Of a stretch of DNA of 24,134 nucleotides, positions 3,924 through 23,195 are shown one piece after another; the first letter of the stretch is position 1, and the number at the start of each line of letters is the position of its first letter. Under the pieces are notes generated by a model. The model did no database searches and was not told the DNA's origin. It worked only from the letters and a program-made list of their open reading frames with translations. The position numbers were made by a program, and so were the translations under genes. Source of the DNA: a virus. Lineage: Duplodnaviria; Caudoviricetes. The DNA lies in IMG/VR virus record IMGVR_UViG_3300015370_000050, positions 1 through 24,134 of that record. One strand, written 5' to 3'.

Positions 3924-5669
3924 TTGGCGACCCCAAAGAACAACGTCGTTCCGATCGACTTCACCCAGGGTATCGAGAAGCACTGGGAGGTTCCGGAGAC
4001 GACTGTTCTCGGAACACGGTCGATGATATCGCTCGAGTTGCAGAAGCATGCGTCGATGGGGCTCACCAACGACGAGGCGCGCCACCTCACACCCGAGCTC
4101 GCGAAGTTCGTCAATTCGCTCAAGAGCGACGCCAACTCCACCTATCAGATTGTCGTGCCCATCGGGATTGGGGACATCTGGGGCGTCAACTTCCGCGGTG
4201 ACCTCGTCTACAGAGACCAGATGGTCCCGGACGTGGACTCCGAAGCGTACCGTGCACGCCCGTACGGTTACCCGACGTTCAACACGGCGCACTTCTTCGC
4301 GCACCACAAGAACAAGCCTGCGCAGGGCCACCCCATCCTCGGGGACGTGCCCTTCGCGACGCTCAATCCGAAGATGAATTGGATCGAGATGGTCGTCAGG
4401 TCGCACCTCCCGTCCGTCGAGGAGAGTCATCCGGAGCTGCTGTCGGCGATCATCAGCGGGGAGTTCCCGGTGAGCATGGGCTTGCTCGCCATCGCCGACG
4501 TCTGCCTGAAGTGCGGCAACGTGCGCAAGGGACCGGCAGCACGGCCCTGCGTGCACATCCTCCCGCCCAGCCAGGGCGGTGAGCTCGGGCGCATCTACGC
4601 CGACGCCTCCGTCGCCGGGATGAGTAACATCCAGCCGCGGTTCTTCGACATCTCCTACGTGAATCGCGGCGCCGACTCCATCGGGTTCGCGTTGAAGAAG
4701 GTCGCCAAGGCGGACTTCGAGCAGACGCGTGAGACCATTGTGATCCGCGACGCCATCGCTCAGATGAAGCAGAAGGGTCTCCTGGATAAGGTCAAGAAGA
4801 TCCCGAAGAAGGGCGACACCGGTGAGCTCGAGAAGTACTCGAAGCTCAAGAAGGCTGTCAGCGCTCTCTCCGCAGAGGAGCCTGACATCGAGCCCGTCGC
4901 GTTGAAGAAGATGGCCGAGGCTGGTGGCCTCGGTCTGCTCGACGCCATGGCGCTGTCTGGGATGCTGCTTCGACCACACGAGTTCCAGACCGCCTACCTC
5001 GGTGCCGTGCACCCCGCGCGCGCGGGTGAGCTGATGCTGGCGAAGCGGACCTTCCCGATGTCCCCGACGGATCTCGTCGGGATGCCGTCGATGAGCGACC
5101 TCCCGTTCCGTGTGGCACCGTCGGGCGTGAAGATATGGGTCGGGCAGAACTTGAGCCCGTGGAAGTCCTGGGACGCTCAGATGCTCATCCACCGGATGCT
5201 CGCGCCGCAGCCGGTGATCCAGTCGGTGACCCCGCAGCAAGCGTGGACTCCGAACGTCAACGACATGACGATGAAGATGCAGTACCTGCAGTACCTCGCG
5301 AAGGCGTTGTCTGCGGTCATGGAGAAGGCGGCCTCCTATACCGGACCGAACGGGATGGAGCTCGTATACGACTCCGACGCGCTCGAAGTGCAGAAGGAAG
5401 CCTCGCTCGGTGCACTCGCTGCGGTTCTTCCGGCGCTGTACTTTGCGAAGCTTCTTGGCGCTGACGTCGCCGCCGGAGCGTTCCCGGGCATCGGCGCGTC
5501 GCAGGATCTCACCGGAAGCGGAAGCAGCGTCGAGCGCTCGTTGCTCCAGAAGCTCATCATGTTCAACCCGTTCCTGGCGACCAGCTTCGCCGGGATCGCC
5601 GGGAAGGGCGGCAGCGCTATGGTGAACAAACTCGACGACCTGTTGTTGCGGAGGTTGATGAAGAAATGA
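3924..5669 (+). CDS. Prohead (capsid maturation) serine protease with Zn-finger insertion and long C-terminal extension
   Basis: Motif order VNFRGD, AHHKNK (candidate catalytic His), VSMG (candidate catalytic Ser, 4473), CLKC...PCVH, FFDISYVNRGAD fits HK97/assemblin-fold phage prohead proteases. Upstream of the capsid gene. TTG start with a G-rich SD. Confidence 0.82.
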   Translation: MATPKNNVVPIDFTQGIEKHWEVPETTVLGTRSMISLELQKHASMGLTNDEARHLTPELAKFVNSLKSDANSTYQIVVPIGIGDIWGVNFRGDLVYRDQMVPDVDSEAYRARPYGYPTFNTAHFFAHHKNKPAQGHPILGDVPFATLNPKMNWIEMVVRSHLPSVEESHPELLSAIISGEFPVSMGLLAIADVCLKCGNVRKGPAARPCVHILPPSQGGELGRIYADASVAGMSNIQPRFFDISYVNRGADSIGFALKKVAKADFEQTRETIVIRDAIAQMKQKGLLDKVKKIPKKGDTGELEKYSKLKKAVSALSAEEPDIEPVALKKMAEAGGLGLLDAMALSGMLLRPHEFQTAYLGAVHPARAGELMLAKRTFPMSPTDLVGMPSMSDLPFRVAPSGVKIWVGQNLSPWKSWDAQMLIHRMLAPQPVIQSVTPQQAWTPNVNDMTMKMQYLQYLAKALSAVMEKAASYTGPNGMELVYDSDALEVQKEASLGALAAVLPALYFAKLLGADVAAGAFPGIGASQDLTGSGSSVERSLLQKLIMFNPFLATSFAGIAGKGGSAMVNKLDDLLLRRLMKK

Positions 5670-19345: not shown

Positions 19346-19857
19346 CCGATACGGGACTGCACCCAGGACCGTGATGTCACAACGCTTCGGATGACTGCGA
19401 CCACGTAGTCTTTGTGCGCGGCGTAGGCAACGAACGGCGCACTCGAGCTGATGACGTGCATGTTCGTGATGTTGCTCGTGCCGGTAGCGATGATCTTGTG
19501 CACGATCGTGCTCGGTCCACGAGGCTTCACGTCTATCTGCCTTGGGAGGTATACGATCGCGCCGTAGTATCTCCCGGGGAGGTCGGGAACGTCGTCGACC
19601 AAGTTCGGGGCCCAGTCCGGGTAGCGCTCTGCAAAGAAGTTCGTCGCTACCACGCGGTCCTGTTCTTCTATCCACTGTACGAAGATACCCCTGACAACGG
19701 CGGGGTCGATCTCGCGTACGCGTTCTGCGAAGCCGACGATATCGGCTGGGCGCACGTACCCATAGGCTAGAAGGAACTCGTACAGTGCTTGCGGCAGCTC
19801 GGAGATACGGACGGTCGTCAAGACGGAGACCGCCCGGATGACGTCCTCGTAGTTCAC
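19342..19857 (-). CDS. Hypothetical protein, last gene of the chaperonin operon
   Basis: GTG start overlaps the groEL stop (GTGA). Its stop overlaps the tube gene stop on the other strand (CTAG 19342-19345). Confidence 0.65.
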   Translation of the reverse strand: MNYEDVIRAVSVLTTVRISELPQALYEFLLAYGYVRPADIVGFAERVREIDPAVVRGIFVQWIEEQDRVVATNFFAERYPDWAPNLVDDVPDLPGRYYGAIVYLPRQIDVKPRGPSTIVHKIIATGTSNITNMHVISSSAPFVAYAAHKDYVVAVIRSVVTSRSWVQSRIG

Positions 19858-21473
19858 TTCTTGTCGCGCGGCTTCGTCAGCGCAGCGGCGGTGGTGCCGA
19901 GGACGCTTCCGCAGCCGTAGCTCGTGCGCAGCGCCTCGATGGACAGGATGGTGGGCTCGACGAGCTTGGTCTTCTTGAAGTCGGCAAACTTGTCGGTGAG
20001 GATGTTGTAGCCCACGTTGACCCCGCGGTTGAGCATCTCCCCGATGATCTGGTAGGTCGCCGTCTTCGGTGTCCCGGACTCCAGTGCGTTCGAGATGAGC
20101 TGCTCCAGCGGCGCCTGCACGACGGCCAGGAAGATGTCCTTGGCGGTCTGCCCGTCCACGTCGGTGGGCTCGTACTCACGGCCGACCTGGATGGCCCACT
20201 TGTACGCCACGCCGCCGGCGGGGATCACGCCCTGGCGAAGTGCCGCGAAGCACGCGTGGATGCCGTCCTCGACGAGGAACATGTTGGACTTGATCTCGGC
20301 GTCGTTGCGCCCGCCGACGAAGATGGTACCGACGCCACCGGCGAGTCGAGCGAGCCGCTCCTCGGTGTGCATGCGCTCCATCTCGTCGCAGTGCGGGAGC
20401 TCGTCGCGGATCTTGTTCATGCGCGCAGCGATCTCTTCCTCGTCTCCGGCGCCTCCGACGATGACGGTCTTCGCCGCAGATACGATGACGCGGCTGGCGG
20501 TGCCGAGGATGCCCTCACTGACGAGCTTCGATGGTTCGACCCGCGCGATGTCCCCGTGCGCTCCCTCGTTGTAGACGCGACCGTCGGTGACCAGTGCGAT
20601 GTCCTGCAGCACGTCCGTGCGCCGGGCACCGAATTTCGGGGCCTTGACGGCGACGATGCGCACCTTGCCGCGGGAGTTGTTCACGACGCAGGTGGCGAGG
20701 GCTTCGCCCACGACGTCGGCGGCGATGATCAAGAGGTTCTTCTTGCCCGCCATCGCCGCGTTGATCGCCGGGGCCACGGAGCGGCCGTCGGACAGGTTGC
20801 CGTCGAACACCAGGACGAAGCAGTCTGCGAAGTCCCAGCTGTCGGCGCCGATGCCCTCCACGAAGAACGGGCTCAGGAAGCCCCGGTCGAAGTGGAAGCC
20901 GGTGGTGATGTCCTTGTCGTGGTACCCGCTCCTGGACTGCTGGAAGGTCGCTACGCCGTCCACGCCGACGGCGGCGACGGTCTCGGCCACGAGGTCAGCG
21001 AGCTCCTCACGGTGGTTGCACGCGAGCGTAGCAACCTGCAGGAGGCTCTTCTTCGTGGATGTGATCTCCTCGCTGCGGCTCCCGATGACCCTACAGGACT
21101 CCGCGTACAAGCCTTCGAGGCGATCGAGGACGCTACGCTTGCGCCCGGCTGGCAGCATCAGGATGTGCTTCGCCAGCTCGGCTGCCAGGATCACCACGGA
21201 GGTCGTGCCGTCGCCGACCTTGGAGTTCATCTCGAGCGACGCCATGATGATGGTCTTCGCTGCGGAGTCAGCGACGTCGTCGTCGTGGCAGAAGCCCCGG
21301 GCGACAGTGACGCCGTCCTTCGTGTGCGTTGGGTTTCCGCCGTACTCGGGGTCGATCAGTACGTTCTGGCCCTTCGGTCCGAGGGTGACGCCCACGGCCT
21401 TGCGGAGAGCGTCGATTCCGAGGATCATCTGTTCGGCTGGATTGAGATTGACGTCTCGACGCTGCTGGCTCAT
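19854..21473 (-). CDS. groEL: Phage-encoded group I chaperonin GroEL (divergent)
   Basis: VTLGPKGQNV, TKDGVTVA, GDGTTS, FDRGFLSPFF, AVKAPKFGARR, ERLARLAGGV, VEDGIHA and GVIPAGG motifs. No C-terminal GGM tail. SD GAGGT at 21482-21486. Confidence 0.96.
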   Translation of the reverse strand: MSQQRRDVNLNPAEQMILGIDALRKAVGVTLGPKGQNVLIDPEYGGNPTHTKDGVTVARGFCHDDDVADSAAKTIIMASLEMNSKVGDGTTSVVILAAELAKHILMLPAGRKRSVLDRLEGLYAESCRVIGSRSEEITSTKKSLLQVATLACNHREELADLVAETVAAVGVDGVATFQQSRSGYHDKDITTGFHFDRGFLSPFFVEGIGADSWDFADCFVLVFDGNLSDGRSVAPAINAAMAGKKNLLIIAADVVGEALATCVVNNSRGKVRIVAVKAPKFGARRTDVLQDIALVTDGRVYNEGAHGDIARVEPSKLVSEGILGTASRVIVSAAKTVIVGGAGDEEEIAARMNKIRDELPHCDEMERMHTEERLARLAGGVGTIFVGGRNDAEIKSNMFLVEDGIHACFAALRQGVIPAGGVAYKWAIQVGREYEPTDVDGQTAKDIFLAVVQAPLEQLISNALESGTPKTATYQIIGEMLNRGVNVGYNILTDKFADFKKTKLVEPTILSIEALRTSYGCGSVLGTTAAALTKPRDKK

Positions 21474-21474
21474 C

Positions 21475-22936
21475 AGTGAATACCTCTTATGTTACGTGGT
21501 CGTACGTGTAGGCGATACCATTCGGTCGCCACAGCACGCGTGCTTTGTTGTACGAAACCGGAAAGTTGTCGTCCCCGACAATGCGAAGAGCTAAACAAGC
21601 AGTGCGAAGACTACGCACCGTGCCCACCACGACTCCACGAGTCCTGTGCGCAGCGCGCACTAAGTCCCAATGTCTAAATCCTTTGTACTCGTCGCGCTTC
21701 TTGGTGGGGTTGGCGTCCCACACTTTTGTTCGCCTGGGTGTAATCGAGAACCTTCCCGACGGCATCGTCGGGGTGTACGTCCGGCACACCATAGCTACAG
21801 CGTCGAGATCATGAGCCTTGTCGAGGCCGAGAGCTCGCCTCCAACACGTGGTCATCCAGCCACAGCAAGATGACACAACCAGTCCGAGACGGCGTAGCTC
21901 CTCACGCAGGTAGTGTTTTCCAGCCTGCAGATGTGCTGGGTACACGAAGCGACGAGGCCGCTTCGTCAGCGTCCACAATCCGTCGTGCAGCTCGGCGTGG
22001 CACTTCTCGCACAGGGTTATCCCGTTGCTTGGCGAGTTACCGCCACTGTTGCTGCGATACTGGATGTGGTGCGCTCGGAGCTCGTCTGGCGAGCTGCAGC
22101 GCTGACACTTGTACCGATCTCTCCAGAGTACCTTCGCTCGGAAATTCTGGCCCTCGTACTCTGCCTGCTGGAACTCCGCGCCGTACAGCTGCCTACCCGC
22201 AGCCATGCTGCTGATGTCGAATTGACCTTCCTCGACGACGACCTTGGTGATGCGAAGCACCCGTCCGAGGTCTTTGACTACGCGAAGAACGCTGTCTTTC
22301 TTCTGTCGGATCGTAGGTGGGATCCAACCCTTGCTACCGCGGTTGAGGAAGCGCGCTGGGCGATGCCGCAGCTTCCGACTCCTGCGCGCACGACGGTACG
22401 TCGCGCGTTGAGTCATCTTGCATTTCACGTCCTGACGAAGCCGTACGACCCCACGGAAGACGACCTCTTCGGTGTGCTCGTTCACGACGGCGATTCCGAC
22501 GTGCTTCGCACCGTCGTCGATACCGACGGTGAACTCACCGGCGGGGTTGTCGACGACACGGGTCAGTTGAATCGTGAACGGTACCACCTGGAACACCTTG
22601 GCTCTGCCTTCGCGCAACAGCTTCCTGGAGCGCGCAGGATGTGTGGGAAGTAACTGCTTCCCGGCAGCGTCGATGACGAAGACCTTCTGTGTCGCTGGTT
22701 TGGTCATCTAAGACCACCTCTCCCAAAGGGAAATTGTTGCTCTCGACAAACTGCGCCCCGTCTCTTTACGTGGGGTAGAACATTCTCCCCCACCCGCAGA
22801 GCTCCCGACTGAGCACATCTGGAGGTGCTTACCGGGGACAGATAGCCGGACGAACTCACCGCTGAAGATCGGCTTACAACCGGCTTAGTCTCGACGCTCA
22901 TTTATGACTCCTCATGGTCATCCTTCAGGGAGCGTC
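21475..22936 (-). mobile_element. Non-autonomous IS200/IS605-derived IscB cassette (about 1.46 kb) at the groES/groEL junction
   Basis: omegaRNA plus iscB with codon usage unlike the flanking genes. No tnpA in the window. Boundaries inferred from the first omegaRNA stem and from the reconstructed empty site (about 2 nt uncertainty). Confidence 0.65.
21487..22707 (-). CDS. iscB: IscB RNA-guided endonuclease (IS200/IS605 OMEGA; RuvC + HNH)
   Basis: PLMP-like N-terminus (VFVIDAAGKQLLPTHPARSRKLL...PFTIQL), RuvC-I GIDDG, Arg-rich bridge helix RRARRSRKLRHRPARFLNR, GWIPP, RuvC-II VVEEGQFD, HNH with CQRC/AHHI/NGITLCEKCH, RuvC-III KAHDLDA. 406 aa. Confidence 0.95.
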   Translation of the reverse strand: MTKPATQKVFVIDAAGKQLLPTHPARSRKLLREGRAKVFQVVPFTIQLTRVVDNPAGEFTVGIDDGAKHVGIAVVNEHTEEVVFRGVVRLRQDVKCKMTQRATYRRARRSRKLRHRPARFLNRGSKGWIPPTIRQKKDSVLRVVKDLGRVLRITKVVVEEGQFDISSMAAGRQLYGAEFQQAEYEGQNFRAKVLWRDRYKCQRCSSPDELRAHHIQYRSNSGGNSPSNGITLCEKCHAELHDGLWTLTKRPRRFVYPAHLQAGKHYLREELRRLGLVVSSCCGWMTTCWRRALGLDKAHDLDAVAMVCRTYTPTMPSGRFSITPRRTKVWDANPTKKRDEYKGFRHWDLVRAAHRTRGVVVGTVRSLRTACLALRIVGDDNFPVSYNKARVLWRPNGIAYTYDHVT

Positions 22937-22956
22937 TGGCAATGATGTTGTAGCGC
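22715..22956 (-). ncRNA. omegaRNA (HEARO-like) of IscB: scaffold about 22936 to 22715, predicted 5' guide about 22956-22937
   Basis: On the - strand: first stem GACGCTC/GAGCGTC, then AGACTAAG, stem AGCCGG/CCGGCT, CTGTCCCCG/CGGGGCGCAG, hairpin CTCCAGA-TGTGCTCAG-TCGGGAG followed by CTCTGCG, GTGGGG/CCCCAC hairpin, TTGTCGA then GAGCA (pseudoknot with loop TGCTC), and a 3' TCCC/GGGA hairpin. Directly upstream of iscB. Exact ends are inferred. Confidence 0.82.
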
Positions 22957-23195
22957 GGGACCGCCATGAAGAAGCGGTCTCCGATGCGGACTTCGACTTT
23001 GACGGATGCGTTGACTTCGAGCTCGTCGTCGGGCTTGTACACGCCGTCTTCGGTGGGCATGATGACCACGCAGTTCACTGAGTTCTGTGTCTTCTCGAGC
23101 GACGCAGAGGCGAGCAGGGCGACGTCCTTCGGGGGCGGCGGCTCATCGACGACGACCCACTCACCCACTGACGCCCAACCTGTCGTGTCTTGCAT
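22902..23195 (-). CDS. groES: Divergent GroES-like co-chaperonin
   Basis: 97 aa. VGEWVVVD (cf. PLGDRVVV), hydrophobic mobile-loop-like VALLASA, YKPDDEL (cf. VKVGDKV), EVRIGDRFFMAVPRYNIIA (cf. EVKIDGEEYLILRESDILA). First gene of the operon containing groEL. Confidence 0.78.
   Translation of the reverse strand: MQDTTGWASVGEWVVVDEPPPPKDVALLASASLEKTQNSVNCVVIMPTEDGVYKPDDELEVNASVKVEVRIGDRFFMAVPRYNIIARRSLKDDHEES

Follow-up and report, generated by a model that had tools for sequence, protein, structure and literature searches.

The closest described counterparts of the locus reported here are IscB elements of the IS200/IS605 family such as ISGst5, with its nuclease GstIscB, in which the omegaRNA lies upstream of iscB, the guide is taken from the upstream, co-oriented host gene, the TAM lies in the far flank and the target is the empty junction. 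In the portions of the sources drawn on here, the bases read by IscB are those directly after the guide match (10.1101/2023.03.14.532601, PMC9640706), the GstIscB motif is TTCAT, with reverse complement ATGAA, cleavage of the donor joint by IscB is established, and most iscB elements are without tnpA (10.1101/2023.03.14.532601). According to a review, the IS200/IS605 target motif is AT-rich and abuts the left end (PMC13565253). The TAM of OgeuIscB is NNRR, with pyrimidines excluded at positions 3 and 4, and mismatches at guide positions 1-14 abolish its cleavage (PMC9640706). Two further groups offer comparisons. IS607 elements with TnpB (CboIStron and RAGATH-18-associated TnpB) have G-rich targets and a short core at both junctions, with GG required at each (PMC6188088); the CboIStron-type TAM is TGGG (10.1101/2023.11.20.567912), and other IS607 TnpB TAMs are given as AGGAG or GAGGG, both resembling a Shine-Dalgarno (SD) sequence (PMC13565253). 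Free-standing phage homing endonucleases, such as Seg and Mob of T4, are nuclease genes between conserved phage genes that spread to empty alleles in co-infection (PMC13565253).

The window, by which we mean the whole 24,134-nucleotide stretch analysed, is a phage fragment from a virus record. On its minus strand, an omegaRNA-iscB element sits between a groES-like gene and groEL, in an arrangement shared with ISGst5 as to gene order, guide source and orientation, and with the T4 enzymes as to its place between conserved genes. The features are as follows.

19854..21473, minus strand: groEL, 539 aa (Pfam Cpn60_TCP1, 110 bits; relatives)
21470..21475, minus strand: two in-frame groES TGA codons overlapping the groEL ATG (21473), from the sequence
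21474..21486, minus strand: 13 host bases with the natural groES end, from a gap-free alignment to the empty ortholog L106
21482..21487, minus strand: SD of groEL, AGAGGT, 8 nt before the ATG, from the sequence
21487..22707, minus strand: iscB, open over 406 aa, with motifs of RuvC and HNH
21487..22936, minus strand: inserted element (omegaRNA plus iscB), 1450 bp, absent from L106, delimited by spacing comparison; each end may slide within a 3-nt AGA repeat
22731..22936, minus strand: HEARO-like omegaRNA scaffold, full-length RF02033 match (37.8 bits, below the Rfam gathering score of 83; E 1.8e-5)
22893..22936, minus strand: first helix of the scaffold, 22936-22930 paired with 22899-22893, from covariation and fold; it fixes the scaffold 5' end
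22937..22952, minus strand: predicted 16-nt guide, the last host groES codons, placed from the scaffold start
22902..23195, minus strand: groES-like gene, 97 aa, of which 10-11 codons run into the omegaRNA before the stop

The call of the upstream gene as groES-like rests on synteny with groEL and on the Atlas comparisons, by which its product is Cpn10-like (features 0.94, TM 0.70); searches of Pfam and PDB sequences returned no match, and hhalign gave a probability of 1.8%. The chaperonin pair (19854-23195) is divergent as a whole: GroES is unseen by Pfam, and GroEL is about 35% like cellular GroEL and 37-81% like its eight nearest relatives, with P0122 at 81%. The ATGA couplings that the sequence-only reading listed at 5666, 5926, 9126 and 14194 are real, and all five such sites in the window, including the one at 21473, continue as ATGAGC (Met-Ser). 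Elsewhere in the window, the terminase large subunit (51-2117) has, close to its N-terminus, a Hint region resembling that of inteins. A sigma-70 promoter scan passed no candidate.

By size and domains, the nuclease is an IscB (OMEGA) protein, with RRXRR/RuvC and HNH domains in a chain of the usual length of about 400-500 aa. Pfam detects RRXRR at 182 bits and HNH at 39.5 bits, and the nearest solved relatives are HfmIscB (PDB 9K2Z, E 1e-52), on which a literature search found no paper, and OgeuIscB (7XHT and 7UTN, E 2e-25). Compared with its nearest relative, P0002, the window protein is 100% alike over the first 80 aa and 62% over the last 80, which suggests, on these alignments, a chimera whose TAM-reading end has been exchanged; with so divergent a C terminus, the TAM of the window IscB may differ. 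Two other relatives (L096 and L097) have 309-aa frames without query residues 169-259, the HNH region, an IsrB-like loss within the same clade.

The left boundary of the element lies at 22937/22936, as had been proposed from the sequence, and the left junction at 22937 holds. The HEARO match begins at 22936, DNA similarity to the empty ortholog ends at 22936, and the first helix of the scaffold starts there. The window scaffold can be aligned with those of six relatives, and across the seven, 31 of 32 cells of this helix are paired (28-50% in slid controls), with both-sided changes in two of five pairs. Flanks differ among element copies, the guide coming from outside the element; the guide length of 16 nt was taken from PMC9640706. 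An exact 11-nt repeat links groEL codons 4-7 (21453-21463) to the scaffold first helix (22888-22898), which by estimate is near chance for 1.5 kb. Runs X1 and X2 both contain, at similar depth, another IscB-omegaRNA copy related to this one (window 21979-22940, loose end 22907); its first helix and loop are different, and it is perhaps at another site in the same phage. X2 also contains a groEL variant, at roughly one quarter of the depth.

For the right boundary, a metagenome scan yielded the window's own record and one syntenic locus, L106, with a 77%-identical GroEL and no element; it is distant, with a GroES only about 60% like that of the window. Its GroES has 91 aa, the groEL SD lies within the last groES codons, and the genes overlap as GTGA. 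The earlier placement of the element in a coupled groES/groEL junction, with its guide from the groES 3' end, stands. In L106, 17 nt separate the last shared groES Ala codon from the groEL start. Each of the 57 possible right junctions between 21474 and 21530 was given a score against L106. Joining at 21486, the first base past the iscB stop, gives the same 17 nt and a 90-aa GroES, keeps the SD, and makes the groES stop share one base with the groEL ATG; its score of 65 ranks second of 57 and is the best among joins giving a normal GroES end, since at 21487 (score 69, the highest) GroES reads through. Because every third junction yields a proper stop, the choice was made by spacing alone. GroES relatives are 90-91 aa long, and three carry 3-5 residues past the Ala position; the join at 21486 has four such residues and the join at 21474 has one. 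A 3-nt direct repeat (AGA) marks the 21486 junction. MAFFT places the 13 host bases on L106 without gaps, although only 5 of 13 are identical, and the groEL SD corresponds in position to the SD inside L106 groES.

The sequence-only reading had instead joined 22937 to 21474, and its description of that join is accurate: GroES (87 aa) ends IIAR, its stop overlaps the groEL start as ATGA, and both junctions begin with GA. On that reading, the element would end at 21475 and bring an SD of its own, the two genes would be coupled by ATGA in the empty site, and (G)ATGA would be the TAM; the clean overlap does resemble the four others in the window. TAMs of this kind are known from GstIscB (10.1101/2023.03.14.532601) and, as NTGA, from DtIsrB (PMC9581776), and a weak hairpin lies 17-19 nt from the ATGA, as in IS605 left ends. 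This join, however, ranks 31st of 57 against L106, with a score of 49, shortens the spacing from the 17 nt of L106 to 5 and removes the SD; it requires an unrelated loss of 12 nt from groES replaced by exactly 12 element bases; the 2-nt GA match is weak; and the 3' end folds no better than shuffled sequences (z -0.16). We give it very little credence, and from the spacing, 21474 is probably off by 12 nt as the right junction. The ATGA at 21473-21470 is real and homologous to the coupling in L106, most likely lying 13 nt into the flank; the second TGA falls where L106 has the stop of its GTGA.

The element and its absence from L106 are directly visible in the DNA, while the exact junction in the window phage is the most likely one given the comparison, no near-identical empty allele of this phage having been seen in the scans. 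On this basis we consider it probable that the element inserted at the front of the groEL SD, at 21487/21486, with the purine run of the SD as its likely TAM.

To see this junction in a wider context, we turned to relatives of the window IscB, scans for which gave 18 viral and 6 genomic loci; a further search counted 379 close homologs of the protein. Empty-site evidence is available for five loci, the window and L083, L084, L088 and L092. For L092, two alleles that are 96% identical (L155 and L156) lack exactly the element; the right flank starts again with AGGAG, 11 nt ahead of the ATG, and the empty allele matches the 16-nt guide of L092 perfectly. In L088, joining at the SD gives a protein of 116 aa ending HNGG, like its cluster mate P0252, and in L083 it gives 126 aa, like P0264, with an 11-nt repeat at both ends; P0252 and P0264 are known as proteins only and are taken to be empty alleles. 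In L150, the ortholog of L084, a stop and an SD precede the same next gene, the gap being 10 nt against 9 reconstructed. If the join is placed a single base ahead of the start codon, L083, L084 and L088 read through, and none of the four relatives with empty-site evidence joins at the ATG, which contradicts the ATGA-coupled junction in 4/4 cases, the L155/L156 pair included.

At all five validated loci, the right flank opens on an SD-like purine run (GAGGT, GGAGG, GGAGG, GTAGG and AGGAG), and the junction lies 13, 12, 10, 14 and 11 nt from the start codon. Such clustering has a chance of about 0.001-0.003 under a uniform null with 31-41 tolerated positions, the window size being assumed, and L083, L084 and L088 are probably from one large phage (a common 528-kb contig) and not fully independent. 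In a broader count, 9 of 16 loci have both an SD and a start no more than 65 nt from the end of iscB, compared with 940 of 4800 random positions (19.6%; p 0.0013); the match at L082 is an earlier overlapping start, and the count omits duplicates (L085, L087, L089, L098), cut loci (L099-L102) and the distant L104. The other seven lack an SD plus start by that rule, and the flank of L096 begins GCAAA. At L082, L086, L090, L096 and L097, the right junction was set by SD or homology and was not counted as junction evidence. Empty alleles of L086 and L095 were looked for and not found, and L151 was dropped as an empty ortholog on account of a different downstream gene.

An SD position might also be what survives when insertions elsewhere are purged, the TAM then being a loose, NNRR-like purine motif. 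NNRR is the motif of OgeuIscB (PMC9640706), the five validated flanks fit it, as many other sites would, iscB elements are biased to co-oriented, transcribed sites (10.1101/2023.03.14.532601), and the L096 flank is not an SD. Survival alone, however, allows some 30-40 nt before the start, whereas all five junctions fall in a 5-nt band at the first bases of the SD, and many of the elements themselves begin with SD-like GGAG. We therefore judge purging an unlikely account of the pattern, and the evidence favours insertion at the SD itself: an IscB group of large phages that likely inserts at the SD front, with variable short direct repeats. In the passages of the literature covered, there is no report of IscB elements inserting at an SD; G-rich IscB TAMs may be listed in supplements or figures.

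Several observations concern where such elements occur. The neighbours of L082, L083, L084 and L088 share one 528-kb contig, so that one very large phage probably carries at least four copies; two unrelated omegaRNA types serve the IscBs of these loci, which are 66-75% like that of the window. In L083 (2709-2790), about 50 extra bases follow the usual 38-nt end, beginning with an SD-like run and closing with an 11-nt copy of the guide 3' end, and look like old flank carried over. Close IscBs were found in 2/151, 1/401 and 1/55 cellular genomes, too few for mapping ends from multiple copies, and annotated phages and plasmids held distant IscBs only, all below 60%. Scans of viral contigs for GroEL found no close ortholog. 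Among the contigs of eight runs, none joined the two sides of the element; since rare variants are lost in contigs, this does not count as evidence.

From the junction, the TAM of the window element is likely to be the bases 21486-21482, GAGGT, or AGAGG if the register slips within AGA. AwaIscB reportedly has the TAM ATGA, the motif that had been proposed for the window. ATGA is an unlikely TAM here because it most likely lies 13 nt into the flank, and the right flank is SD-like at 5/5 loci. The broader idea of a TAM set on a translation signal survives, the signal now being the SD and not the start codon; judging from the flanks, ribosome-binding sequences are likely what this group recognises in order to cut. 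The NNRR of OgeuIscB fits all five validated flanks, the TAM of the window protein being a prediction, and does not fit the occupied window junction, GACGC. The earlier suggestion that the occupied allele is immune thus appears sound, as GACGC follows the guide match with a pyrimidine at position 3, against the NNRR given for OgeuIscB (PMC9640706). A rule fitted afterwards (NNRR-not-C) accepts all 10 modelled targets and rejects 9 of the 10 occupied junctions, L090 being the exception, but it also accepts 17% of random sites and is a lead only. The earlier suggestion that targets cannot easily escape by mutation is unsupported: L106 differs from the window guide at -5 (synonymous) and -10, and mismatches within positions 1-14 cost OgeuIscB its cleavage (PMC9640706).

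The element most likely works as described for ISGst5 (10.1101/2023.03.14.532601), by analogy with which cleavage and homing in the window phage can be pictured. Transcription through groES would yield a guide from the last 16 nt of the host gene, the nuclease would act on co-infecting phage, cutting their groES-groEL junctions where the element is absent, and the element would be copied into the cut junction by recombination, the occupied allele being spared by the GACGC after its guide match. Landing just before the SD would leave groEL its ribosome-binding site and cost GroES only its last three residues, so that insertion is likely near-neutral for the host genes. The T4 enzymes differ from this scheme in that IscB is RNA-guided and retargeted at each site, with several sites per genome (three copies in G001).

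How such elements move is a separate question. Y1 TnpA (PF01797) and serine-recombinase TnpA (PF00239) were each found in 0/5 viral records (one complete, four fragments), and a host TnpA may act in trans. Unlike ISGst5, the group has a far flank that is G-rich and SD-like rather than ATGAA, the validated flanks are not the AT-rich targets of IS200/IS605, 3' ends vary in length and sequence, and the direct repeats of the five validated loci measure 3, 4, 6, 11 and 1 nt, which could be microhomology. The 3' ends differ between subfamilies, with subterminal hairpins clear in some relatives and none in L086, L096 and L097, and many related scaffolds open on GGAG, resembling the SD at which they insert. 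IS607 differs in that the window nuclease is an IscB with a 3' TAM, and iscB is reported to be unlinked to IS607 resolvases (10.1101/2023.03.14.532601). We rejected a strict IS607 reading, as a GG core is present in only two of five validated loci and the window has GA; arrays of short direct repeats of the IS607 type were not evident in the ends of the three elements examined. Short-core exchange, or microhomology repair after an IscB cut, would suit both the repeats and the GGAG starts. More tentatively, and with confidence well below even, a compact large-phage IscB clade may use the SD as insertion core and TAM alike, without a Y1 transposase, its copies landing harmlessly between coupled genes and gaining a transcribed guide; the elements would then move either through microhomology recombination set off by the nuclease or through an exchange of the IS607 kind at a GGAG core.

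On a further reading, the insertion would be old and fixed, with decayed ends, a nuclease now irrelevant and flanks barely informative on the TAM. The window 3' end is indeed unlike the 38-nt end common to L082-L084, the HEARO score is weak, and the five viral records hold no transposase of the kinds searched for. Against this, the 406-aa frame is open with its catalytic motifs, the first helix is compensated, and occupied and empty alleles coexist for relatives, which together make decay very unlikely.

In the literature covered, characterised IscB elements abut AT-rich motifs set by the transposase. A group that lands on SD sequences, if true, would explain how such elements are packed into dense phage operons without damage, and would make it possible to test directly how iscB elements without a transposase move. 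Occupied and empty alleles are already paired in nature in L092 and L155/L156. Such a group would also predict nucleases of 400 aa with G-rich TAMs, which are sought by editing work (PMC11666462).
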